Both the position numbers and the translations under genes were made by a program. Below, in pieces: positions 1 to 62,721 of a stretch of DNA of 64,000 nt (positions within the stretch are counted from its first letter, which is position 1; each line of letters opens with the position of its first letter). The DNA is taken from the NCBI GenBank assembly GCA_947630975.1, contig CANRJP010000001.1, positions 18,712-82,711 of the forward strand, given 5' to 3'. This DNA is from an uncultured Clostridia bacterium. Its GTDB lineage: Bacteria; Bacillota; Clostridia; UMGS1883. Below the pieces are notes generated by a model that had not been told where the DNA came from, made no database searches, and was given only the letters and a program-made list of their open reading frames with translations.

Positions 1-120
1 TGTGCTCAAGACCGTTTCGATGGTCTGGCGCTCAAGGTCGGAATCCTGGGTCATTTCAATGTCCCGATAGGCGGAGGAAATCACCACGTCATGATTTTGA
101 TCCAGACGGAAGCCCTTCAT
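1..120 (-). CDS. phage baseplate/tail protein, N-terminal part only (XkdS/GpW-like small baseplate protein); CDS continues beyond the window edge
   Basis: Reverse-strand ATG at 118-120 overlaps the stop of the upstream ORF (TAATG). The translated N-terminus is MKGFRLDQNHDVVISSAYRDIEMTQDSDLERQTIETVLST, typical of small baseplate-wedge proteins. Position in the tail module supports the call. Confidence 0.4.
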   Translation of the reverse strand, partial: MKGFRLDQNHDVVISSAYRDIEMTQDSDLERQTIETVLST

Positions 121-506
121 TATGGCAGCACCCCCACTATAACGGAATAGTTTTTGCTGTGCCGTCCCGCCTCGGGCAGCACATTCGCGCCCCGTATGTC
201 CTGCGATATGTCGTGGTCGCAGCACACGCAGATAACCAGATCGCCGGCGGAAATTTTCCTGTATGTCAGCAGCTCAAGCCCCTCGTGGGTCACGGGCTCA
301 AGCTTGTATCTTGCCGTCCACGCTATGGGTACGCTCACCGACGCCTGGGCCTTGGCCGCTTCGCCCCGCTGCTGTATCAGTCCCAGGGGCTGAACCTCCG
401 CCCTTGTCAGTCCGGCGTCCACGCTCAGCACACGGCCCACGAAGGCAACGCTTAGCTCCATGGACAGCCTTTGGCTCATGTCGTCAAAATATTTCTGTAT
501 TCCCAT
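120..506 (-). CDS. phage tail/baseplate-associated protein (XkdR-like position)
   Basis: 128-aa ORF tightly packed, 1-bp spacing or overlap, in the minus-strand tail operon between the XkdQ-like and baseplate genes. No recognisable motif. Positional inference only. Confidence 0.4.
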   Translation of the reverse strand: MGIQKYFDDMSQRLSMELSVAFVGRVLSVDAGLTRAEVQPLGLIQQRGEAAKAQASVSVPIAWTARYKLEPVTHEGLELLTYRKISAGDLVICVCCDHDISQDIRGANVLPEAGRHSKNYSVIVGVLP

Positions 507-6238: not shown

Positions 6239-6284
6239 GATTGCATATCTCCTTTTAATTTTAATTTTTTAGATAACGGTGAGT

Positions 6285-6607
6285 GGGCTGTAAAAAAACT
6301 TACTATGTAATCTGGAGGCACGGGGGCCGGTCGAAAAAATCGTGCAGAACGGACGAAAATCAGCTCTCGCAGGCGACAGGCGAAGCCTGCCGCCGAGAAA
6401 GCCCTCCCGACGGCGTACATAGGTACGCCAAGGGTGATTTTCGTTCGTAGTTCAAGGGCATAAAAATGAGAAAATTCGCTCGCAAGGGCGAATTTTTTAC
6501 ATTATGCAATTATTTTTATATTTATCGACTTATATTATAACACTCATATTTGCCTTAAATAAGTCATTCAGCCCTTGAACGGTCTGCGCGACTTTTTTTA
6601 CGGCCCC
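6285..6607. repeat. MITE-like TIR element, copy 1 (~323 bp, non-coding)
   Basis: Ends gggctgtaaaaaaa… and …agcccttgaacggtctgcgcgactttttttacggcccc. Its reverse complement aligns over ~180 bp plus ~60 bp at the far end with 45677-46216, and its ends match the 36-bp TIRs of 59937-60130. Fills the gap between the tail tube stop (6618) and chaperone start (6238). Confidence 0.75.
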
Positions 6608-6617
6608 CTCAATTCGG

Positions 6618-7019
6618 TTATATCGCTTCCGTCACGCCGTCAAACACCATGATGGTGAACTCCAGATCCTCAGCCTCGGCGCCCTGGCTGATCTCGGGGG
6701 CCTCCTGAATGGCGCCCTGTTCGCCGCCGTGTCTCAGGCCAAGCTCCTTGTTTATGCACCATACGGGGAAGTTATCCTTCCGTCCCTCAAGGCTGAGGAG
6801 ATACCCCAGCTGAGGGCTTGTGGGCTGAACGGAGAGGGTAAGGGTGTGGATGTTGTTGTTTATCTCGCTCTTGATGATGTCGCCCTGAGCGCCCACCACA
6901 GGCTCAAAGAAGGATTCCTCCTTGGCCCAGGTTATCATGTCCTCGCCCACGCCGGTAATGTACACGCCGCCGATCATTATGGTACAGTCTTTGGCGTTAT
7001 ATCTTGTAATGCGTTCCAT
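6618..7019 (-). CDS. phage tail tube protein (XkdM-like)
   Basis: 133-aa ORF immediately downstream of the sheath gene, in PBSX-like sheath-tube-chaperone-TMP order. Confidence 0.6.
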   Translation of the reverse strand: MERITRYNAKDCTIMIGGVYITGVGEDMITWAKEESFFEPVVGAQGDIIKSEINNNIHTLTLSVQPTSPQLGYLLSLEGRKDNFPVWCINKELGLRHGGEQGAIQEAPEISQGAEAEDLEFTIMVFDGVTEAI

Positions 7020-9554: not shown

Positions 9555-9736
9555 GGGGATTTCATCTCCTAATTCCTAATTCTCCTGCCCGCCCTGCGGG
9601 TCACTAAAGGCTCACCGCTTACGGGTTCGCATTTTATGCGACAGTTTAAATGTATCAGGTCGCAAGTTAGTCGCAAGATTATAACCTACCCATCGACCAA
9701 CCATGACGGGCCCCCACTATTCCTAATTCCTCATTC

Positions 9737-10108
9737 CTAATTCCTAATTTTCCTCCATCCGCTTCGGGCCGTGCGGAACTTCACGTCCGATACGATGTCG
9801 CCGCCCAGCAGGCTTTTCAGCAGCTCCCACAGCAGGGCCGTCCTGTCCCTGTCAGAAAACGACTGGGACAGGTGGCCGCTTATGCTTTCGCTGGTCACGC
9901 CCGCCGTTACGCCCATGATTTCCACAAACTTCACCGCGAACAGCCGGACTCTGGCGGGAAGCTCCGCCAGCTCCTCGTCGCTGTTCAGGTCGAATTTAAG
10001 CCGTGTGTTCTCCAGCACGTACTGAAGGGCGGCCTCCACCATGAGCACGGTCTCCGGCGTTATGGGGTCAAGACCCAGATTTAAGGCCTTGACCTGCTCC
10101 TCGGTCAC
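9737..10108 (-). CDS. phage head-tail connector/adaptor (gp6-like)
   Basis: 123-aa ORF directly downstream of the major capsid gene (4-bp overlap). Size and position are typical of a head-tail adaptor. Confidence 0.5.
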   Translation of the reverse strand: MTEEQVKALNLGLDPITPETVLMVEAALQYVLENTRLKFDLNSDEELAELPARVRLFAVKFVEIMGVTAGVTSESISGHLSQSFSDRDRTALLWELLKSLLGGDIVSDVKFRTARSGWRKIRN

Positions 10109-12169: not shown

Positions 12170-12598
12170 GATTCATTCCTCCATGTAGAAAAAATTTCAC
12201 CCTCCGTATAGAAAGGTTAAACAAATTGAACTCCTTCCGCCAATGAGGTAAAAAACATCAAAAACACGGGCGTGTACCGGGTTTTTGATACCTCAATCGG
12301 GGTAGGAAATTTGTCCGCGGACAAATTTCCGTAAGCGAAAGCGCCCGATGCGGAAAGGGGGCACGCGGGGAAAACCGCTCGGGTTGTCCCCGCGAGAGCG
12401 CTGTCAGCGCTCCTACCTTCCGTATAGAAAGGCATAAAAAAACGCCCACCGTATAGATGAGCGTAATATGTAATTTTTTATACTAATCCATAATTAAAAT
12501 CAGACACCGAGATGGCGCGGAAAAGGCCGTCGCAAATGTCTGATTTTAGTTGGGGATTAGTATTATGGACACAGTTTAGCGACCTGTCCGGGTCGGGC

Positions 12599-12922: not shown

Positions 12923-13128
12923 ATTTTCCTCCGTGCAAAAAGCACGCTGCTAAACGCATCAAAAAAGCACTCTCGAAGTAAGAGTGCTTAATTATAGCTA
13001 AAATGGACTTTGGCGGGCGTCGCGTCTCCCGCATCTCTCGGGTTTCCCCTGTCATGCCATCGGCGTGTGGTCGCAACGAAATTTACCACCTCAAAGTCCA
13101 TCTTTAGCTCACTTATATTATACCACAA

Positions 13129-13647
13129 TTATTTGTTTTTGTAAAGTATCTTTTTGTTATTTATATAATTTTTCCAGCGCCGTTCACTAATTTTCCATGC
13201 AGATATTATCGAATTTTTATATCCTTCCACATCTGAAGTCGTATGTAAACGTAAAATCACTTGAAATGTCAAATTTTCAGCTTTAATGCTTTTTAAAATC
13301 AATGCTGAATTTTTCTTGTCCTCAAGAATATAATCCGGCTTCTCAACCGCAAGTTTTAAGAAAGGTTCAATTATTTCAAAATGACCCGGATGGCGTTCCT
13401 CAATATGAGCTATTCGTTCCTCGGTAATGATAACTTCATCTGTAGTTATATTGTCAGCAACACACTTATACAAATCCTTGTCTATACTACCAATGAACCT
13501 CACATTTCCTCCCGCCGTTTCATCCTTAGTTGTCTTTATTATACCACTTTCCGCAGGTTTGTCAAGAGTTTTTTCATTTGCGGGCTTGTCAATGACCACT
13601 TTATCAAAATGCCGCCCCGTGGCTTTAAAAAATTCCTCATCGCTCAT
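13129..13647 (-). CDS. orphan polymorphic-toxin C-terminal cassette (uncharacterised toxin domain)
   Basis: Begins MSDEEFFKATGRHF. The full-length MuF toxin (13898-15361) has M-NDEEFFKATGRHF at its MuF/C-terminal-domain junction (residues 300-314), and the following ~158 aa are unrelated. This is the classic orphan-module architecture. Confidence 0.5.
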   Translation of the reverse strand: MSDEEFFKATGRHFDKVVIDKPANEKTLDKPAESGIIKTTKDETAGGNVRFIGSIDKDLYKCVADNITTDEVIITEERIAHIEERHPGHFEIIEPFLKLAVEKPDYILEDKKNSALILKSIKAENLTFQVILRLHTTSDVEGYKNSIISAWKISERRWKNYINNKKILYKNK

Positions 13648-13701
13648 TAGCTTTTAAAAGCACGTCCGAAAACGTGCTTTTTTATTCGGTTGGTTGGTAC
13701 A

Positions 13702-13914: not shown

Positions 13915-15361
13915 TAAAATAACCGCCCTTCTTCCATTGTAGTTCAGGATATGCCGCTTTCACACGTTTTATAATAAGCTTCTTCTCGGCAACCGTCAAT
14001 TCATTTCTGCCTTCATAGTGCATTTTTTCAGCTAAAAAACAATTTACCTCCGCCCATTGACAGTAACCCATATCGTATTTATGATGTGTAATTTCATGTA
14101 CAACAGCTTGCGCTGCATTCTTCTCATTTTTCGTGTTAGAAACAAAAATTTTTATAACATCGCCTTGTTGCACACCACGATTGGTATGAGGTTGCGGCTC
14201 ATAAATAAGCTGGGGTCTTATGCCGGTCTGTTGAATGTATTCCAGCGTCTCTCGTCCAATTGGCGTTGTTTCAAGATTATCAGCTATTTTCTGAGGGGTT
14301 ATTTCAACATTTTCGTCAATATTCTCATATTGGAAAATGTCTTCGGCTCTTGCATAATTTATTATATCACTTTTCCCCGATTTGTCAATAGGGAAATGCC
14401 GCCCCGTGGCCTTAAAAAACTCCTCGTCATTCATTAGTTTGTACTGGACGAAGCAGCGGCAGTTGATGTCCTGACTTGCCACGCCGCTTTTACCGGGGCA
14501 GTCGGCCATGCTACCGTCGGAGAGAGTGAACTGCTCATCGGCCAGCACCGTCACGCCCTCCATCATTTGATGGTCGGCCTTGCCGCCCACATAGGTTTTC
14601 CAGCCGTGCTTGGTCTTGACACGGTGATTGGGCCGGACGCGCTCGTCCTTCATGGTGCGCCATATCTTCACCATCCGCAAATCCGCGCCGCTCTCTCGCA
14701 GCCCCTCGTCCAGACGGGCCGCCGAATCGTACATACCGGCCTCCCGCACTCTGTGTGTCTCGGTGCGGGCTATCCTCACGGCCTTTTTGTAATCGCCCTC
14801 CACGCGGCCGGCGATCCGCCCGGCCATGGTCTCGATGCGGTCGCCGTTGGTCAGTCCGGTCATGATGTCCCGCTTTATATCATACACCACCTGACGGCGG
14901 TTCCGTTCCAGACGGGCGTTAAGCGTCAGACCGGCAATGGGATTTTCCACCGCCTGCTTTATCACCTCCGGCGTCACCGTGGGAACGCCTTTCAGCGCCC
15001 GCTTAAGCTCCGCCGTATCAGCGGCCCGTTCCACCGCCGCCGCCGTGTCCCTGTATGCCCGCTCGTAGGTCTCCGCCGCCAGCTCGGCGATGAGCTGCTT
15101 CGCCCGTGGGCTTACGCCGTCCAGCCGCCGCTGTATCTCCTCAAGAAATCCGGCGTAGCGGTTCTCCCGCATCAGGGCCTCGAAGGTCAGACGCCCGTCG
15201 ACGGCCATGTCGGCGTATTCCGTGCCAAGGAACATCTTAAGCTCCTTTATCAGCTCACGGTACAGCCGCCTCAGCTCTTTTTCCGCGCCCTGCTCCCGGT
15301 GCTCCGCTATGCGTCTGAGCTGCACCAGCGCCCGCTGAAGCTCCTTATCGTTAACGGCCAT
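13898..15361 (-). CDS. phage head morphogenesis protein, MuF/SPP1 gp7 family, fused to a C-terminal HExxH toxin-like domain (MuF polymorphic toxin)
   Basis: Residues ~1-299 carry MuF motifs (RIARTETHRV…DERVRPNHR…NCRCF) and the gene lies directly downstream of the portal. The C-terminal 173 aa are an extra domain containing HEITHH (HExxH). Confidence 0.7.
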   Translation of the reverse strand: MAVNDKELQRALVQLRRIAEHREQGAEKELRRLYRELIKELKMFLGTEYADMAVDGRLTFEALMRENRYAGFLEEIQRRLDGVSPRAKQLIAELAAETYERAYRDTAAAVERAADTAELKRALKGVPTVTPEVIKQAVENPIAGLTLNARLERNRRQVVYDIKRDIMTGLTNGDRIETMAGRIAGRVEGDYKKAVRIARTETHRVREAGMYDSAARLDEGLRESGADLRMVKIWRTMKDERVRPNHRVKTKHGWKTYVGGKADHQMMEGVTVLADEQFTLSDGSMADCPGKSGVASQDINCRCFVQYKLMNDEEFFKATGRHFPIDKSGKSDIINYARAEDIFQYENIDENVEITPQKIADNLETTPIGRETLEYIQQTGIRPQLIYEPQPHTNRGVQQGDVIKIFVSNTKNEKNAAQAVVHEITHHKYDMGYCQWAEVNCFLAEKMHYEGRNELTVAEKKLIIKRVKAAYPELQWKKGGYFNGKKF

Positions 15362-36105: not shown

Positions 36106-36269
36106 ATATTAGCAAAATAAAAAGGAGCCCCGGTGTTGGCGCACCGAAGCTCCGAGTGGTACATGATACAAAGAGGAGGATCACATACCAGAACCATATC
36201 TATTGTATCATGTACGCTCCGTTTTGTCAATATTTTTTCAATTTTTTCAACAAAAGGAGTGTATTTTTT

Positions 36270-37304
36270 ATGGCAAATGCAAAAAAATTGCCCAGTGGGA
36301 GCTGGAGCGTGAATATCTATATCGGCAAGGACAAGAACGGTAAGCGCAAGTACAAGCGTTTTACCGGCGCCGACAAGCGCAAGGTCGAGCGGGAGGCCGC
36401 CGCCTATGCCGATGAGCACCGTGGCGAGGTCAGCACCGACACCTTCGGCTATGCGGCGCGGCAGTATATTGAAAATCGAAAAAACATTCTTTCCCCGTCA
36501 ACGATATTAAATTACAACAGGATTTACAGGAACTACCTTCAGCAGTGGGAATGTGTCGCGATTTCAGATATTGGGTCAAAGGCAATCCAACAACTGGTAA
36601 ATAACAAGGCCACGGAGCTGTCGCCCAAAACGATCCGTAATATATACGGTTTTATTACGGCGGTCATTTATTCGGTCGATCCATACGCAAGAATAAAGGT
36701 TGCTCTGCCGGCGCCGGTTAAGACATTTCGGGAACTGCCGCCGCCCAAAGATGTCATTAAGGCGGTCATTGGGACCAAGTGCGAGCTTCCGGCACTTCTC
36801 GCCCTCTGGGAAAGTCTGAGGATGTCGGAAATTCGCGGGTTAAGGTTCGGTGATCTGGCAGGCAATATCATAACCGTGCGCAACGTAAAGGTAAAGGGCG
36901 AAGATGGCGACGTCCTCAAGAGCCGTACAAAGAATTATGACAGCACTCGGCGGCTGGCTTTGCCCCAATATATAATGGACCTTATCCCGAGGGATAAGGA
37001 GCCTACTGATTTTATAGTGCCGTATAGTGCCCGCCGTATATATGGTTGGTTTCAGGACGCGCTTGACGCTGCCAGACTGCCGCACATGAGTTTCCACGAT
37101 CTCCGGCATATGTACGCGTCTATTGCGCTAAGTATCGGCATACCGGACAAATATGCGATGGAGAGCGGCGGGTGGCGAAGCCCTCATGTTTTAAAGGGAG
37201 TGTACCAAGAAACTTTCAGCGCCGAGCGCCAAGCCGCCGACGCGAAAATGAACAATCATATTTACACCTTGATAGATATTGCCCGGCGTGAAAATGCAAC
37301 ATGA
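36270..37304 (+). CDS. int: tyrosine recombinase/phage integrase
   Basis: C-terminal …LRFGDL…HDLRHMYASIALSIGIPDKYAMESGGW… contains the R…HxxR…Y catalytic signature. Start at MANAKK after RBS AAAAGGAG. Confidence 0.85.
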   Translation: MANAKKLPSGSWSVNIYIGKDKNGKRKYKRFTGADKRKVEREAAAYADEHRGEVSTDTFGYAARQYIENRKNILSPSTILNYNRIYRNYLQQWECVAISDIGSKAIQQLVNNKATELSPKTIRNIYGFITAVIYSVDPYARIKVALPAPVKTFRELPPPKDVIKAVIGTKCELPALLALWESLRMSEIRGLRFGDLAGNIITVRNVKVKGEDGDVLKSRTKNYDSTRRLALPQYIMDLIPRDKEPTDFIVPYSARRIYGWFQDALDAARLPHMSFHDLRHMYASIALSIGIPDKYAMESGGWRSPHVLKGVYQETFSAERQAADAKMNNHIYTLIDIARRENAT

Positions 37305-38621: not shown

Positions 38622-39596
38622 TCAAAACTCAAGAACATATTTTCCGTTCACAACGGGCGTTTCTCCCTCCGACAGAGAAAGTTCCACGCCTTTTTCCGTG
38701 AAATACAGGGCGTTACAGCGTCTCGGGCCGATTATCTTACTGAAATATTTTTTCGGCGCCCTGATATCCAGCCTGTTATCCTCGACCATGCTCTCCATCT
38801 GATTGCGGACATAGCGGCTCACAACAAGCTCTCCGACAGCGGGATGATACGGGCCGGCCACGCAGCCGCCCTTAAGCTCCTCACTGTCGCTTAGCCCGAT
38901 GCGGAGCACTTTCACCCCGGCCTTACGGAATTTTTCGTATAATAACGCCCCCAGCCCCGTCGCCTCCTCCACGGTCTGGGGCAGATACGCTCCGGCCCGG
39001 TACATATCGGCGAGGCGAGTGTTTTCCATGACGAGGGTGGGGTAAATACGGGTTTCCCTCGCGCCGAGAGCGATGAACTCGTCCGCGGTGGCAAGGGACT
39101 TTTCGGGAGTGTCAAGGGGCAGGCCCGTCATCATCTGGAGTCCAAGGACAAAGCCGTGCTCCGTTATCATATGCGACGCGCGGCGGACGGCCTCCGCGTC
39201 ATGCCCCCTGCCGGCGGCCGCGAGTACCCCGTCGTCCATGGACTGGGCTCCCAGCTCGATGTTCGTGACCCCGTATTCCGCCAGAAAATCAAGCTCCGGA
39301 AGGTCGATATAGTCGGGTCGGGTGGAAATGCGGATGCCGGATATTTTACCGGCGTCAAGGTATTTTTTCGCCTGAATAAGGTAACGGCGCTGGAGTTCTG
39401 GCTCTATTCCGGTGAAGCTGCCGCCGAAAAAGGCGATCGTGCTGCCCCCCGTTTTTCCGCCGGAAAGATACCTGTCGGCAATAACGCCCACCTCCTCGGG
39501 AGCCGGAGCCTCCAAAACCCCGGTTATCGAGCGCTGATTGCAGAAAGCGCAGTCGTTGGGACAGCCCACGTGCGGCACAAAAACGGGGATATTCAT
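38622..39596 (-). CDS. radical SAM protein
   Basis: N-terminal VFVPHVGCPNDCAFCNQ contains CxxxCxxC. Overlaps the downstream GNAT gene by 4 bp. Confidence 0.7.
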   Translation of the reverse strand: MNIPVFVPHVGCPNDCAFCNQRSITGVLEAPAPEEVGVIADRYLSGGKTGGSTIAFFGGSFTGIEPELQRRYLIQAKKYLDAGKISGIRISTRPDYIDLPELDFLAEYGVTNIELGAQSMDDGVLAAAGRGHDAEAVRRASHMITEHGFVLGLQMMTGLPLDTPEKSLATADEFIALGARETRIYPTLVMENTRLADMYRAGAYLPQTVEEATGLGALLYEKFRKAGVKVLRIGLSDSEELKGGCVAGPYHPAVGELVVSRYVRNQMESMVEDNRLDIRAPKKYFSKIIGPRRCNALYFTEKGVELSLSEGETPVVNGKYVLEF

Positions 39597-40366
39597 GACT
39601 GTTCCCCGCCCAACAGCTCGTGAAGTATCGAAGTCGGGTCGGACGCCTCCCCACGGCCTTTCAATTCATCCTCTATGTGTCCGATTTTTTCCATAGCCGC
39701 CCGGGCAGCCAACTGCTGGGCCTTTTTTTTGCTGTTGGAAACGCCGGTGCCAATATATGCGCCGTCGATGGCCGCCGCCACCGTGAAAATACAGTCGTGA
39801 ACCGGCCCCACCTCGCTTATGGTTTCATAGGTCAGTTTTCGGTCCTTACCCTGAATTTTTTCCTGGAGACGGCTCTTATAGTCATGATCGATGAAATGTC
39901 CCTCGGTTATCATATCTTTAATTCTTTCGCCATACACTTTGAGCACATAGCTTCTTGTGGGCTCAAGGCCGGCGTCCAGATACATGGCGGCAACATGGGC
40001 TTCAAACATATCCGCCAAAATGGACTTTCGGTGACGCTCGCCGCAGTTTTCGGCGCCGGTACCCAGCAGAGCGAACTCGTCGATGCCTATTTGGGCGGAA
40101 AGCTCCGCCAAAGTGTCCTCGCATACCAGCGCCGCCCTGATGCGGGTGGACATACCCTCGGGAAATTTTTTGTCCAGGTAAAGCTCTTGGGCGATGATAA
40201 AGCCAAGTATAGCATCGCCCAAAAACTCTAACCGTTCATAGCTCTCAACCCCAAACTGATGAGCGTAGGATGTGTGGGTAAGGGCCGTGCGAAGGAGCTG
40301 CCGGTTACGGAAAGTATAGCCCATACGCTTTTCGAGCCGTTCAAAATCAGGCTGCCTTGTACTCAT
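39593..40366 (-). CDS. rnc: ribonuclease III
   Basis: ERLEFLGDA catalytic signature plus a C-terminal dsRBD. Start at MSTRQP after RBS AAGGAAGGA. Confidence 0.9.
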   Translation of the reverse strand: MSTRQPDFERLEKRMGYTFRNRQLLRTALTHTSYAHQFGVESYERLEFLGDAILGFIIAQELYLDKKFPEGMSTRIRAALVCEDTLAELSAQIGIDEFALLGTGAENCGERHRKSILADMFEAHVAAMYLDAGLEPTRSYVLKVYGERIKDMITEGHFIDHDYKSRLQEKIQGKDRKLTYETISEVGPVHDCIFTVAAAIDGAYIGTGVSNSKKKAQQLAARAAMEKIGHIEDELKGRGEASDPTSILHELLGGEQS

Positions 40367-40417
40367 ACATATCCTTCCTTTCTTTTGTGTAATCATATAT
40401 TATAATAAAGCACAAAA

Positions 40418-45676: not shown

Positions 45677-46216
45677 GCTGTATGTAGAAAAGTCGCGCAG
45701 ATCGTTCAAGGGTTGAATGACTTAATTTAAGGCAAATTTGAATGTTATGTAACCAATCATTAAAAATAAAATAATTGCATAATGTAGAAAATTCGCCCTT
45801 ACGAGCGAATTTTCTTATTTTTATGCCCTTGAACTACGAACGAAAATCACCCTCGGCGGCGTCGGGGCAAAGCCCGTCTATGCTCCGACATTTTTTCAAA
45901 AATGCCGTCGCACGAGGGCTTGCCCCTCCTTCTTCGCAAAAGGTCACGCGGCGCTCCGGCTATTCGGGCGGATAAGCCGCCCTCATTACGCCTGCGCTTG
46001 CTACCAACCTTTTGCGAGTTTTACGCCACCACTCCCCACAAACAACAAAGTTGTTTGTGGGGAAAAGGAGGAGCAGCCGAACGAGCCAAACGATGACTTT
46101 TTTGCAAAGCATAAAAAGTCGCCGCAAGCGAAGGGAGGCTTGCGACGACGCCGTTCTGCACGATTTTTTCGACCGACCCCGCGCTTCCAGGCTACAGAGT
46201 GAGTTTTTTTCTATCC
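45677..46216. repeat. MITE-like TIR element, copy 2 (~540 bp, inverted relative to copy 1)
   Basis: Both ends align with the reverse complement of copy 1. The longer, divergent middle contains the hairpin ccccacaaacaac-aaa-gttgtttgtgggg. Lies between the convergent araC-family and nth genes. Confidence 0.7.
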
Positions 46217-55050: not shown

Positions 55051-55126
55051 GCCGGCGTAGCTCAGTTGGTAGAGCAGCTGATTTGTAATCAGCAGGTCGT
55101 AGGTTCGAGTCCTATTGCCGGCTCCA
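55051..55126 (+). tRNA. tRNA-Thr (anticodon TGT)
   Basis: Cloverleaf: acceptor gccggcg/tgccggc, D-arm gctcagttggtagagc, anticodon stem gctga/tcagc with loop ttTGTaa, T-arm gtaggttcgagtcctat, and encoded CCA. Confidence 0.85.
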
Positions 55127-55144
55127 CTTTACTTAACTTAATAT

Positions 55145-55229
55145 GGAGGAGTTCCCGAGCGGCCAAAGGGGGCAGACTGTAAATCTGTTGTCACTGACTT
55201 CGGTGGTCCGAATCCACCCTCCTCCACCA
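55145..55229 (+). tRNA. tRNA-Tyr (anticodon GTA), class II with long variable arm
   Basis: Acceptor ggaggag/ctcctcc, anticodon loop ctGTAaa, long variable arm tgtcactgacttcggtggt, T-arm ggtgg-tccgaat-ccacc, and encoded CCA. Confidence 0.85.
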
Positions 55230-58497: not shown

Positions 58498-58995
58498 TTG
58501 AACAGTGAGGACTACGATTATTTTTCCGCCGCTTACGAAAGGTATGCGGACACGGTGTTCCGGCTGGGGCTGGTGTGGCTCGACAGCCGGGCCGACGCCG
58601 AGGATATGACCTCGGATCTCTTTGTGAAGCTCATGACCGGCAAGCGTCCGGCCTTTAAAAGCGGCGAGCACGAAAAGGCTTTTATCCTCCGCTCGGCCAT
58701 AAACCTCTGCAAGGACAGGCTGCGGCGGCGGAGGCTCCTGCGGGAAACGGATTACGACGACGGCATCCTCGCCTATATGGAGGCTCCGGAGGAAATAGGT
58801 CTGATGAAGGAAATACTGGCTCTGCCACCAAAGTACCGGGCGGTCATCTACCTCCACCACTGTCAGGGCTATTCCACCGCCGAGGTGGCGAAAATGCTGG
58901 GTTTGAGAGAGGGGACCGTCCGCAGCCAGCTCTCCCGGGGGCGGGAAAAGCTGCGGTCACAACTGAACGAGGGAGGTATACACTGTGTACAATAA
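58498..58995 (+). CDS. ECF-type RNA polymerase sigma factor
   Basis: Sigma region 2 (…YADTVFRLGLVWL…DAEDMTSDLFVKL) and region 4 HTH (…YSTAEVAKMLGLREGTVRSQLSRGREKLR). TTG start after RBS GGAGG. Confidence 0.7.
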   Translation: MNSEDYDYFSAAYERYADTVFRLGLVWLDSRADAEDMTSDLFVKLMTGKRPAFKSGEHEKAFILRSAINLCKDRLRRRRLLRETDYDDGILAYMEAPEEIGLMKEILALPPKYRAVIYLHHCQGYSTAEVAKMLGLREGTVRSQLSRGREKLRSQLNEGGIHCVQ

Positions 58996-59872
58996 AATAT
59001 TCGACAAAATCACCGTTGACAGCGGTCTCAAACAAAAAATCGAAGAAAGGATAGACGGAAACATGAACAACAAAAAGCACTTTGCGTTTAAAACCGCCGC
59101 TTTGGCGGCCTGCCTTGCCCTTGCCCTTTCGGCGGGCGCCTTCGCGGCCTATCGCTATCTGACGGCGGGACAGGCGGCCAGAGAGCTGGGCGATGAAAAA
59201 CTGGCTCTCAGCCTGGACGGCGGCGAGATCATGAATGTCGCCGCCGAGGAGGCCCCCTATCGGGCCGCGCTGCTGGGCACCTGCTCCGGCAAAAACCTCA
59301 GCGACTTCGGCGGCTCGGACGGGGAAATTTCTCCCGAGCGCACATACGCGGTGCTGGCCATAGAGCGCACCGACGGCCGGGAAATGACTTATGACGACAA
59401 TATTACGGTTTCGCCCCTTATTCAGGGACTCGACCCCATGCGTTACAGCATCTTTTCTTTGGGCGGCGGCAGCTCGAGCACCGTAATCGACGGCGTGATG
59501 TACCGCATCGTGGAGTGCGACAGCATAGAATGTCTGGCCGACAGGCAGCTATATCTGGCGGTTTACGAGGGACTTGCCCCCAACTCGGCCTACGCCATGG
59601 ACGCCGACACCGGCATTATCAGTCCCAAAGCGGACTATGACGGGGTAAATATGCTCCTCGAGCTCAACCTCGACCCCGCCAAGGCCGACCCTGCCAAGGC
59701 ACAGGCCCTCATAGACCGGGTGGAAATCAGGACGAGCGGAGAGGATAACGGTAACGAAGCCGAGGACGAAGCCGAAAGGTACAGCGTCGTCGAAGGCGAT
59801 CCCCGGCTGGTCGAGACCGCCGCCGGCGCCGTATCGAAAGAGGACGTGTTTATAATCGAACAAAATTATTAA
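58985..59872 (+). CDS. membrane-anchored putative anti-sigma factor
   Basis: Overlaps the sigma gene stop. N-terminal cytoplasmic segment, then a single TM (AALAACLALALSAGAFAAY), then an extracytoplasmic domain. Confidence 0.4.
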   Translation: MYNKIFDKITVDSGLKQKIEERIDGNMNNKKHFAFKTAALAACLALALSAGAFAAYRYLTAGQAARELGDEKLALSLDGGEIMNVAAEEAPYRAALLGTCSGKNLSDFGGSDGEISPERTYAVLAIERTDGREMTYDDNITVSPLIQGLDPMRYSIFSLGGGSSSTVIDGVMYRIVECDSIECLADRQLYLAVYEGLAPNSAYAMDADTGIISPKADYDGVNMLLELNLDPAKADPAKAQALIDRVEIRTSGEDNGNEAEDEAERYSVVEGDPRLVETAAGAVSKEDVFIIEQNY

Positions 59873-59915
59873 TGGACAATTAAATACCGCCCAATAGTAA
59901 AACCAATATTGCACT

Positions 59916-60130
59916 CACTATGTAACCTTGAGGCACGGGGCTGTAAAAAAATGGCGCAGACCGTTCAAGGGCTGTATATGGTTTGATTTAAGGCATTTTA
60001 AGTATTGAAAAATAAAACGTTAAAAGTTAAATAGCTGTCAATTAATGTGGAAAAACCGCCGTTTTTTGAAACGGCGATTTTTCTTTTATCTTATGCCCTT
60101 GAACGGTCTGCGCCATTTTTTTACAGCCCC
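59916..60130. repeat. MITE-like TIR element, copy 3 (minimal ~215-bp unit with perfect 36-bp TIRs)
   Basis: 59937-59972 ggggctgtaaaaaaatggcgcagaccgttcaagggc is the exact reverse complement of 60095-60130. The leader cactatgtaaccttgaggcac matches copy 1. Internal hairpin ccgccgtttttt-gaaacggcg. Located between convergent genes. Confidence 0.8.
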
Positions 60131-61209
60131 TATTCCTCCATCATCTGATTTACGGTGCGTATAATACCGGCGGTTATGCCCTCGGCGACGGCGCTCTGTC
60201 CCTCGGCGCTGACCAGATAGGCCCTGTCGCTGTCGTTGCTGAGATAGGCCGTCTCCACACGCACCGCCGGCTGGCGTGTCATGCGGACGACGTAGAGGGT
60301 GGAGCCGTCATGCACCTGAGCGCCCTGAAGGTCGGAATGAGCCAAAATTTCGTTATATATGTTCTGTGCAAGGATAGTGCCGTACATGGAATCCGGGTCA
60401 TAATAGACCTGGGTTCCGTTGGCGGAGGTGTCGTCAAACGAGTTACAGTGTATGCTTACAAAAACCGCCGGAACGGCGCCGCTGGCGGTGGGACGGTTGG
60501 CTATGTCCACGCGCCCCTGTGACGAGACCTGATAATCGGACTCACGGGTCATTATCACGTTGTATCCCGCCGCCGTCAGATTGTCGCTGACTCTCATGGC
60601 GATGGCGAGCGAAATTTCGTCCTCGGTGACTCCGGCATAGTTCGCTCCGGTGCCGCCGCCGTTCCCCGGGTCGATAACTACCGAGCCGTAGTCAAAGGCG
60701 ACGGTGTTTGTGGTGTCCACCGTGCCGGAGGTGTCCAGATGCACCATATCCGCGCCCATATGGGGATCGTTCATGGTAACGGCGCCCGTGGCTGCATCCC
60801 AGCCCACCTCATAGCCTATCAAGTCGGCTATCTGACGGATGTGAACCACCGTTTTGCCGTCTATTAGCATGGGGGTGGGTTCATCTTCGGGTATAACGCG
60901 GGGCTGACCGTTGACATACAGATTTCTGCCGCCAAGAGTGAAGAGCAGTTCTTTTCCGTCAAAATACACCTTGGCCTGATTTGTTTCGGTAATCCAGACA
61001 ACGGTGCCGCCGATGGCCTCGAAAAATTCTCTGATGGGCACCATGGTGCGCTCGTTGTAAAGAACCGGCGGCTGTTCAAAATATATGGGCCAGCCGTTGA
61101 CGCTGATATTTACGTCGGCGAAGGCCGCCGGAGCGCTCAGTGTCAGGGCCGCCGCCGTCACGGCGGCTATAATTCTTTTCTTTTTCATGTTATCGCTCGA
61201 ACCTTTCAA
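60130..61209 (-). CDS. N-acetylmuramoyl-L-alanine amidase (Amidase_3) with N-terminal stalk domains
   Basis: Signal peptide. Amidase_3 motifs (DPGNGGGTGA…E…IMTRESD…VFVSIHCNSFDD…AYLSND). Confidence 0.75.
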   Translation of the reverse strand: MKGSSDNMKKKRIIAAVTAAALTLSAPAAFADVNISVNGWPIYFEQPPVLYNERTMVPIREFFEAIGGTVVWITETNQAKVYFDGKELLFTLGGRNLYVNGQPRVIPEDEPTPMLIDGKTVVHIRQIADLIGYEVGWDAATGAVTMNDPHMGADMVHLDTSGTVDTTNTVAFDYGSVVIDPGNGGGTGANYAGVTEDEISLAIAMRVSDNLTAAGYNVIMTRESDYQVSSQGRVDIANRPTASGAVPAVFVSIHCNSFDDTSANGTQVYYDPDSMYGTILAQNIYNEILAHSDLQGAQVHDGSTLYVVRMTRQPAVRVETAYLSNDSDRAYLVSAEGQSAVAEGITAGIIRTVNQMMEE

Positions 61210-61212
61210 ACA

Positions 61213-62721
61213 TCAGACAAGACCTCTGTCTTGCATCATCTGCTGAACCGTCTTTATTATACCCGCCGTAATTCCGTTGGCCAGGGCTTCCTGTCCTTCC
61301 TCGCTGGTGAGGTATGCCCGGTCGCTGTCGTTGCTGATAAAGGCCGTTTCGACCAACGCGGCAGGCTGAACGGTCTTGCGAACCACGTACAAATCGGAGC
61401 CGTCTCTTATCCTCGAACCCTTGAGCGTCGTATTGGCCACGTCAGCGTCATATATGTTCTGGGCCAAGATAGTGCCGTAATGGGACTCCGTATGGTAGTA
61501 CACCTGGGTGCCGTTGGTGGATGGATCGTCGAAGGAATTGCAGTGTATGCTGACGAAAACAACGGGTATGGCATTGCCGTTAGTGGGCCGGCTGGCAATA
61601 TCCACCCGGCTTTGAAGAGAGACCTTGACATCCGATGTACGGGTCATAACCACGTTATATCCCGCCGCCGTCAGCTTGTCCCTTACCTTCAAAGCGATGG
61701 CGAGAGTTATGTGATCCTCCATTATGCCGCCGGAGGAAGCGCCGGTATAGCCGCCGTGGCCGGCGTCGATGACTACGGAGCCGTAGTCGTACTCCGCATC
61801 CGTGACCGCGTTGGCGCCGCCTGCGCTTACAATGACGGACGTCTGTTGGGGAATGCTGTCCACAAAGGCCGTGGGGTCAAAATATGCCCCGTTCCGTAAA
61901 TCGTCCGTAGAGGTGACGGCGCCGCCCTGATCCGCCGGAGAGACGGCGATAACTATGCCCGTCTCGGTGCGGCTCAGCAGCACGTTTGGCTGATTTCTGA
62001 CGTCGAGCACTATACGGGCCGTATTTTCATGGTTGGCGCAGCGGACGGAGATAACGTTCGCCCCGTTCACACTGTACTCGCTGTAATCCTCCGTCAGCTT
62101 GGTATTCGGAAAATCCAGCACCACTCTGTCGGGAGAGCCGTAGCGGTTCACCGTGGGCTCCGCCGGACTGTCATAGGCCAGATAAACCATGTCCGCCCTG
62201 TCCACCGTGGCGGGTACGATCTTTGAGATATAACCGCCGCCGAAGGGACTTGTGAGGGTGGCCGCGCCGGAATTTCCGTCCCAGCCAACGTCAAAACCGA
62301 GTTTTTCGGCTATGAGCCGCATGGGAGCCATGAGCTCACCGTTGATCACAATGGGAGCGGGCTCATCGGCGGGCAGGCTGTCGAGCTCGCCGTTCACATA
62401 TATGCTCCGGCTGTCAGCCGTAAGCTGAAGCGTTCTGCCGCCGTAGCTTATCAAAAAACCGTCGGCGCCGCTCAAGCCGGTCACGGAACAGCCCACGGCC
62501 TCGAAAAACTCCCTGACGGGCACAAAGGTCTTTTCGTTCAAAACGATTGGGGGCATTTTATTTGTAACAATTTTTCTTCCGTCAACAAGTATATTTATAT
62601 CGTCCGCACTGTAGCGGTGCGTCTCTCCGCCGTAAACGAGATCCATCTCCCGCCCGAAGGCCGTGGCCGCCGTAAGCAGCATGGCGGCCGTAACAGCGAA
62701 AATCACAGCTAAACGCCGCAT
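61213..62721 (-). CDS. N-acetylmuramoyl-L-alanine amidase (Amidase_3) paralogue with extended stalk region
   Basis: C-terminal half near-identical in motif layout to 60130-61209 (VVFVSIHCNSFDD, MTRTSD, AFISNDSDRAYL). N-terminal half has additional stalk repeats. Confidence 0.75.
   Translation of the reverse strand: MRRLAVIFAVTAAMLLTAATAFGREMDLVYGGETHRYSADDINILVDGRKIVTNKMPPIVLNEKTFVPVREFFEAVGCSVTGLSGADGFLISYGGRTLQLTADSRSIYVNGELDSLPADEPAPIVINGELMAPMRLIAEKLGFDVGWDGNSGAATLTSPFGGGYISKIVPATVDRADMVYLAYDSPAEPTVNRYGSPDRVVLDFPNTKLTEDYSEYSVNGANVISVRCANHENTARIVLDVRNQPNVLLSRTETGIVIAVSPADQGGAVTSTDDLRNGAYFDPTAFVDSIPQQTSVIVSAGGANAVTDAEYDYGSVVIDAGHGGYTGASSGGIMEDHITLAIALKVRDKLTAAGYNVVMTRTSDVKVSLQSRVDIASRPTNGNAIPVVFVSIHCNSFDDPSTNGTQVYYHTESHYGTILAQNIYDADVANTTLKGSRIRDGSDLYVVRKTVQPAALVETAFISNDSDRAYLTSEEGQEALANGITAGIIKTVQQMMQDRGLV

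Follow-up and report, generated by a model that had tools for sequence, protein, structure and literature searches.

The two 36-nt arms found at 59937-59972 (GGGGCTGTAAAAAAATGGCGCAGACCGTTCAAGGGC) and 60095-60130 of the window, that is, of the whole 64,000-nt stretch of DNA that was analysed, belong to a short-form copy, here called c3, of a dispersed and modular inverted-repeat element, which probably acts as a mobile or formerly mobile terminator cassette and whose core would have been inverted in c3 by recombination between the arms. The family is undescribed, non-coding and dispersed, and its distribution is restricted to a small clade of rabbit-gut Clostridia/Oscillospiraceae. In the mechanism that we propose, copies would have inserted, now or formerly, into very short spacers downstream of genes, a spread by transposition-like insertion that we infer, each of them carrying a putative bidirectional Rho-independent terminator hairpin between two complementary arms of ~36 nt. 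In effect, such copies would be mobile terminator or insulator cassettes for gene 3′ ends. As for c3, where the GC-rich module of typical copies is lacking, arm-arm recombination may have inverted the 122-nt core relative to the leader.

The Element at the Amidase Locus

The arms of c3, 36 nt each and 122 nt apart, are exact reverse complements of each other, and the right one ends on the stop codon of the amidase gene, both as the preliminary description had stated (Table 1). That description made the element start at 59916; the element is the same, with its start moved to ~59913 and its span to ~220 bp, since the conserved leader counts as part of it. When up to three mismatches were allowed, the 36-mer occurred in the window only at these two sites, and no match was expected by chance (100 shuffles). 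The locus is reproduced with one mismatch in 2.9 kb, and with the same internal orientation, by an independent ENA metagenome contig (L001), so c3 is not an assembly artefact.

Table 1. Coordinates of c3, of its flanking genes and of the other copies in the window, with the parts of a typical copy in order
Feature	Position	Strand	Remarks
c3 leader ACTCACTATGTAACCTTGAGGCAC	59913..59936	+	Matches the leader consensus CTCACTATGTAATCTGGAGGCAC; left-side marker of the family
c3 arm A, 36 nt	59937..59972	+	Adjoins the leader; perfect reverse complement of 60095-60130
c3 AT-rich core, 122 nt	59973..60094	-	Agrees with the standard family orientation when read on the minus strand only; opposite to the leader
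c3 core-end motif TGCCTTAAAT	59986..59995	-	Conserved, normally beside the right arm; 26-copy alignment and direct reading
c3 bidirectional intrinsic-terminator-like hairpin	60050..60087	both	A-tract 60050-60055, stem-loop 60057-60076, T-tract 60077-60087
c3 arm B, 36 nt	60095..60130	-	Abuts the amidase stop codon; place usually held by the right arm
Amidase stop codon TAG	60130..60132	-	Shares one base with arm B, whose last base is the G of TAG
Flanking gene, 295 aa	58985..59872	+	No Pfam domain; converges on the leader side of c3
Flanking N-acetylmuramoyl-L-alanine amidase gene	60130..61209	-	Converges on arm B; Amidase_3 and Cu_amine_oxidN1 domains
Copy c1, typical ~325-nt form	~6284..6608	+	15-mer, leader, split left arm, GC module, core and right arm; inside the prophage tail module
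Copy c2, long form of ~533 nt	~45683..46215	-	~290-nt multi-hairpin module; between convergent nth and AraC-type genes
Typical copy, element 1: terminal 15-mer GGGGCTGTAAAAAAA			Mirrors the right terminus
Typical copy, element 2: 23-nt leader			Consensus CTCACTATGTAATCTGGAGGCAC, in more than 35 copies
Typical copy, element 3: outer left arm			GGGGGCTGTCCAAAAAAATCGTGCAGAACGG
Typical copy, element 4: GC-rich module			~95 nt, nearly invariant
Typical copy, element 5: inner left arm			TCGTAGTTCAAGGGC
Typical copy, element 6: AT-rich core			A-tract/hairpin/T-tract at its start, TTTGCCTTAAAT at its end
Typical copy, element 7: right arm			CCCTTGAACGGTCTGCGCCATTTTTTTACAGCCCC

The neighbours of c3 are genes of an ECF-sigma operon and amidases. 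On the leader side, the stop codon of the 295-aa gene lies ~38-40 nt before the leader, depending on the leader start chosen. On the other side, the amidase ortholog in contig L105 ends on a TAG in the corresponding position, and GGGC follows it there too. The amidase gene is itself one of two tandem paralogues (60130-61209 and 61213-62721), with two shared blocks at 70-72% nucleotide identity (60134-60650 vs 61229-61745) and an extra AMIN domain in the upstream one; this pair, with ruvABC ahead of it, is also conserved in relatives. Genes for tRNA-Thr(TGT) and tRNA-Tyr(GTA) are found at 55051-55229 (+), upstream of the ECF-sigma/amidase region.

Size, Distribution and Anatomy of the Family

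One genome per species was scanned with the 18-mer CCCTTGAACGNTCTGCGC, the best-conserved block of the arms, and this gave at least 98 loci. Among the matches listed there were at least 66 true family copies, held by six rabbit-gut MAGs of "uncultured Clostridia" and one Oscillospiraceae MAG, the other listed loci being chance matches in unrelated phyla. The Clostridia MAGs were Lapin-008 (at least 15 loci), Lapin-023 and Lapin-001 (at least 14 each), Lapin-024 (at least 9), Lapin-030 (at least 7) and Lapin-028 (at least 6). An nhmmer profile built from 26 full copies recovered ~75 full or fragmentary copies from these loci and from the window and, among the matches listed, the family was found only in those seven MAGs and in the window itself. 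Neither the leader nor the 15-mer is found in the window outside the three copies. Searches elsewhere were negative: none of the three window copies matched Rfam 15 at the gathering threshold, and permissive searches returned only chance matches far below it; no copy was found in annotated records of PLSDB plasmids and INPHARED phages, and no similar ends either; IMG/VR viral contigs gave three chance matches only; and contigs of JGI metagenomes yielded nothing for either a c3-specific or a family probe.

Family copies range from ~200 to 755 nt, with ~320 nt for a typical one, and have no ORF. The boundaries of the family are sharp: on the right, conservation ends after GCCCC, and on the left it extends out to the 15-mer or, in 6 of the 26 copies, just to the leader. 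Size variants differ at a single point, which lies inside the left arm: the short forms c3, L019, L036 and L091 have no module there, and two long sub-families, each conserved across different MAGs, have one of ~170 nt or ~290 nt (the latter in c2, L086, L082 and L029). The preliminary description had regarded c3 as the minimal copy of an element worth cataloguing as a family, and this view holds, c3 being a short form without module in a family with at least 66 loci. The perfect 36-bp arms, on the other hand, are not the family trait that they had been taken for, since they are peculiar to c3, and the arms of other members are related but imperfect and do not contain the exact 36-mer.

In c1 (6284-6321) and in the consensus of 20 of the 26 copies, the leader is flanked by two direct copies of the outer 15-18 nt of the arm (GGGGCTGTAAAAAAA ... 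GGGGGCTGTCCAAAAAAA), an arrangement which resembles an insertion into the arm or a duplication together with it. The leader also has a conserved ATG-TAA and a GGAGG, and a small ORF considered on these grounds was dropped, as no start codon stands at a usable distance.

Within one genome, identity between copies does not exceed 88% (mean 77%), so recent bursts of transposition are not apparent, but short-read MAGs would have collapsed any identical repeats. Many short-read contigs of Lapin-023 and Lapin-030 end inside a copy, as do two contigs of the window's species from other samples (L114 in c2 and L115 in c1), which makes the family a systematic source of breaks in this kind of assembly.

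Position at Gene 3′ Ends

The three copies in the window all abut gene 3′ ends, c2 and c3 between convergent genes and c1 between two genes of the same direction, 10 nt after the stop codon of a 133-aa gene at 6618-7019. This placement had been noticed from the outset and extends to the whole family. Once gene calls were passed through a codon-usage filter, which tells true genes apart from the numerous spurious ORFs of this GC-rich DNA, the right end was seen to face the stop codon of a converging gene in 54 of 65 copies, with the stop at -11 to +15 nt in 40 of them (median ~6). The left end faces the stop codon of another gene in 32 of 49 copies, 23 of which have it at ~0-38 nt; otherwise it faces a gene start, 28-189 nt away in 13 of 17 cases and up to 1492 nt away in the rest. 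Between convergent genes the element takes up nearly the whole spacer. Of the spacers in the family loci examined, 23 of 36 convergent, 26 of 200 tandem and 2 of 31 divergent ones hold an element, and the two occupied divergent spacers (>1.6 kb) probably contain missed genes.

Comparison of orthologous sites shows presence and absence of the element. The spacer between nth and the AraC-type gene measures 555 bp with c2 in the window, 12 bp (TAG-AGCCGCCGGCGG-CTA) in the sister species Lapin-023 (L111) and 268 bp of unrelated DNA in L108. The C-termini of the genes differ at the empty site of L111, so that the exact junctions are unreadable. A gap of 12 bp means that some convergent pairs of this clade are essentially spacer-free. 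This spacer (L111, 3631-3642) forms, together with the stop codons, the palindrome TTAGAGCCGCCGGCGGCTAA, where no terminator is evident. A BLAST search with the flanks among the collected loci found no further empty sites, L114 and L115 merely breaking inside c2 and c1.

At the c3 locus, homology between the window and the sister genome Lapin-008, whose amidase is 89% identical, stops at TAG-GGGC, and the spacer of the latter is filled with an unrelated 362-bp sequence with different inverted arms. A second intergenic inverted-repeat family, unrelated to that of c3 and made of short repeats of the GGAAT/ATTCC type (TATTCCTCATTCCTCATTCC..., TCCTAATTCCTAATTCC...), occurs at 2718-2753, 9567-9600 and 9718-9768 of the window and at 8592-8953 of L105. 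In the sister genome, it is this family that fills the same amidase/297-aa convergent spacer which c3 occupies in the window. Such spacers are thus hot spots for more than one repeat family.

The Core Hairpin as a Candidate Terminator

All copies retain an A-tract, a GC-rich stem-loop and a T-tract in the core, with at least 25 different stem sequences among them. As the hairpin is kept while the sequence of the stem varies freely, the pattern points to a signal that depends on structure only, such as an intrinsic terminator. A terminator scan made a call in each of the three window copies, always in the direction entered from the TTTGCCTTAAAT side, which in c3 corresponds to the plus strand; read on the minus strand, this hairpin of c3 has 15 bp. 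The T-rich tails of the two directions differ in strength, with means of 7.35 T and 5.44 T out of 10 in 55 copies, and 44 of the 55 have the stronger tail toward the gene that converges on the right end, 3 in the opposite direction. In c3, the plus direction, which faces the plus-strand gene at 58985-59872, shows 9 T out of 10, and the weaker tail (5 of 10) lies in the minus direction and faces the amidase. Termination by the core hairpin, one of the two explanations suggested when the copies were first noticed, is plausible from these features, and both directions look usable.

Neither a promoter scan nor inspection by eye gave a consistent sigma-70 site in leader or core. Folded as RNA, either strand of c3 reaches about -103 kcal/mol (z-score of about -12). 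The host encodes an RNase III (39593-40396), for which, by analogy with other MITE-like repeats, the perfect 36-bp RNA duplex of c3 would be a substrate.

The Flipped Core of c3

The leader of c3 aligns with those of c1 and c2 on the plus strand and its core on the minus strand. The nhmmer profile matches c3 accordingly, at profile positions 13-68 (+) and 160-316 (-), and among copies with both leader and core such opposite strands were seen only here. It is the TTTAAGGCA end of the core that adjoins the leader in this arrangement, and inversion in silico of 59973-60094 renders c3 collinear with the short copies L019 and L036. The arms are also exceptional, with 36 of 36 positions matching, compared to 24-33 of 36 in 29 other copies. 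Arm A has the inner sequence of the right-arm type, ATGGCGCAGACCG, instead of the usual left-arm ATCGTGCAGAACG, so both arms of c3 carry the right-arm variant. Recombination which left both arms with the right-arm type of sequence would explain the perfect match, and the flip is most simply accounted for by intramolecular recombination or template switching from arm to arm, accompanied by gene conversion. In another short copy, L091, the core is likewise inverted with respect to the arm types, so inversion between arms recurs. The orientation of c3 is identical in two assemblies, and the flip could be ancient, or it could be an actively switching state whose other form was left unsampled.

Alternative Explanations

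Terminal inverted repeats together with target-site duplications define a MITE (PMC3184786), and a classical one would be a deletion derivative of an IS whose 36-bp terminal inverted repeats are bound in trans by a DDE transposase, with gene 3′ ends as merely tolerated sites. The family has several traits of this kind: it is small, non-coding and multi-copy (at least 66 loci in 7 genomes, 3 copies in the 64-kb window), its long inverted arms begin with GGGG, and it is present or absent at an orthologous site. Besides, positions 44 and 319, which pair in the arms, change together (TA in 15 copies, CG in 7), as a single transposase that must recognise both ends would require, and ordinary MITEs and IS elements are likewise enriched in convergent spacers (PMC3049150). 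Terminal inverted repeats do exist, but the left arm of typical copies is internal to leader and 15-mer and is split by the module, and these conserved inserts of 95-290 nt in the middle of the left arm are hard to square with a terminal repeat bound by a transposase. The ends are asymmetric, with leader and 15-mer on one side only and the 15-mer missing in 6 of 26 copies. No direct repeat of at least 3 bp was seen at the aligned ends of any of the 26 full copies, which are flanked by A-rich sequence on the left and T-rich sequence on the right, so no target-site duplication was found. No partner IS appears in the loci, and plasmid and phage records have no similar ends. The search for a cognate transposase, advised when the arms were first described, found none in the window and none in the related loci, which add up to ~0.7 Mb and come from fragmented MAGs, nor did arms enclose coding-size DNA anywhere in those loci. 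The sole recombinase of the window is the tyrosine integrase of a prophage (36156-37304), 23 kb from c3, and the 158-aa gene between two head-to-head copies in L037, considered as a candidate transposase, is GreA-like. Altogether, the initial picture of a transposon with classical terminal inverted repeats is not supported by these results, and we regard a MITE as rather unlikely. The consensus of Tn3-type repeats starts with GGGG and ends with TAAG. A Tn3-derived miniature element of the TIMEs/IMU kind was rejected: the GGGG start is present, but a 5-bp duplication is missing and the arms read GTTCAAGGGC at the inner end, not ...TAAG. IMU is such a Tn3-derived element, with ~38-bp inverted repeats and a 5-bp duplication (PMC3184786).

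Lack of target-site duplications together with polarity would fit a transposition of the ssDNA type, and one can conceive the strand running from leader to right arm as a structured nucleic acid, either a modular non-coding or 3′-UTR RNA or an ssDNA moved by an HUH/Y1 enzyme like REPINs and IS200/IS605 derivatives, with the arms forming a helix. Double compensatory changes are found in the GC module (pair 81-109, TA in 15 and CG in 10; pair 83-107, GC in 19 and TA in 7) and in several hairpins of the 290-nt module, and modules of all three sizes interrupt the left arm at one and the same point, in the manner of the variable domains of structured RNAs. Such changes, together with the large conserved modules, suggest more than a passive carrier of a terminator. 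Wobble pairs are asymmetric as well: on the leader-to-right-arm strand, arms and module have 64 G.T cells vs 16 A.C cells, with at least three cells at six G.T positions and at no A.C position, and core stems contain G.U on the leader-to-right-arm strand in 34 copies vs 4 on the other, an asymmetry that neither flank nor element skew explains. It depends, however, on a few inherited positions, and the transition spectrum of consensus Watson-Crick columns (54 vs 39) shows no significant difference from that of unpaired columns (187 vs 195; Fisher p = 0.13). Moreover, no Rfam family matches even permissively, no convincing promoter precedes the leader, a plus-strand RNA must read through the internal hairpin to reach the right arm, and no Y1/RAYT gene was seen in a non-exhaustive look. 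The difference of 23 kcal/mol between the strands in the folding of the c2 module was discarded as evidence for an RNA strand, because it is compositional (z-scores of -8.0 and -7.9 vs shuffles). With a fragile wobble signal and a compositional folding difference, structured RNA or ssDNA is kept as a rival or an addition to the terminator cassette rather than as the main reading, and we hold it only as a tentative possibility. An improbable combined form of these ideas would have a strand-specific modular RNA/ssDNA element, and not a decaying transposon, which installs itself without target duplication a few nt after stop codons and whose flippable core works as a reversible, direction-dependent terminator or insulator for convergent pairs. 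The flip by itself leads to the idea of an inverton. Invertons exist in both orientations in a population, are usually promoter-bearing and have a dedicated invertase. Like them, c3 is a short segment between inverted repeats, here opposite to its relatives, and a recombinase flipping its 122-nt core would alter which convergent gene meets the stronger direction of the terminator. The perfect arms, a core inverted with respect to all other leader-bearing copies, the second flipped copy L091 and the unequal T-tracts (9 vs 5 of 10) all agree with this; against it, both independent assemblies have the same orientation, the arms are a generic family feature and not a dedicated recombination site, no invertase is near c3 (the distant prophage integrase aside), and the c3-locus probe gave no contigs in JGI metagenomes. 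We thus consider an inverton very unlikely, and the terminator cassette with a core inverted by arm recombination stays as the preferred explanation.

Comparison with Known Repeats

Among described elements, SPRITE and BOX of the pneumococcus come closest in function and position. No other pneumococcal repeat is as strongly enriched between convergent genes as SPRITE, which lies near the 3′ ends of coding sequences, has no established target-site duplication or partner IS, and has been proposed to be co-opted as a terminator (PMC3049150). Like the family of c3, it is a small non-coding dispersed repeat built around a terminator-like hairpin with a U-rich tract, a likeness of function and position that does not come from comparing sequences. 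SPRITE is ~105 bp, AT-rich, with an 18-bp duplex and AAAA/TTTT terminal repeats, and is confined to S. pneumoniae and S. mitis, whereas the present family is found in Clostridia and has copies of 200-755 nt, 36-nt arms around the terminator, an asymmetric leader and GC-rich modules. BOX of S. pneumoniae has the structure boxA-boxB(n)-boxC and a length of 67-637 bp (PMC3049150, PMC3184786), and it shares with our family the modular design, where an internal module is absent, present or enlarged with outer pairing intact, and an extensive predicted folding. It has terminal inverted repeats and causes target-site duplications (PMC3049150), of which none was seen here. It differs also in host and sequence and in having no constant internal terminator hairpin.

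Correia elements can influence transcription and mRNA processing, and they duplicate TA. The Correia/NEMIS elements of Neisseria and other MITEs are intergenic and have inverted arms which fold into a long hairpin when transcribed (PMC3184786), as in the family of c3. The latter is unlike Correia/NEMIS in showing no duplication, asymmetric ends and no known partner IS. REPs depend on a RAYT (Y1/HUH) gene flanked by REPs. Common to REP/BIME/REPIN and our family are the extragenic location, a bias to convergent spacers, doublets of inverted units with compensatory changes and no target-site duplication, REP units being GC-rich, 20-40 nt long and with a short spacer (PMC3184786). In the family described here the arms enclose instead 122-600 nt, including the terminator, the core is AT-rich, and no RAYT was seen in our non-exhaustive look.

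Repeats at gene 3′ ends such as REP, BOX, SPRITE and Correia shape termination, mRNA stability and rearrangement, and they have been described almost only in cultured pathogens. The present family adds uncatalogued repeats of uncultured gut Clostridia, which fragment short-read assemblies, and it would supply tightly packed convergent genes with ready-made bidirectional terminators. Its modular inserts, apparently constrained by structure, come without the hallmarks of movement driven by a transposase. Should the strand-specific structure or the inversion of the core be functional, the family would be a tractable example of terminator spread and rewiring; should they not, an entry in repeat libraries is still worthwhile for annotating these genomes. 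If the modular ssDNA/RNA reading were true, it would represent a new kind of mobile regulatory module for 3′ ends.

The Prophage Region

Positions 1-37304 of the window correspond to a prophage, which encodes a baseplate hub, a Dit-like tail protein, a DUF3383 sheath-like protein and a major capsid protein E, together with an SPP1-type portal, a large terminase, a primase/helicase and, at its end, the tyrosine integrase. The location of c1 in the tail module means that phage DNA can carry the element. Other features were seen in the same region. A skipping-rope RNA (RF02924) lies at 13005-13099 (-), with 51.7 bits vs a gathering score of 36.7, and two further repeats, unrelated to the family of c3, are a 27-nt inverted repeat (12480-12506 / 12537-12563; 89% complementary, 30 nt apart) and a 50-nt direct repeat (13607-13656 / 14394-14443; 86% identical, 787 nt apart).
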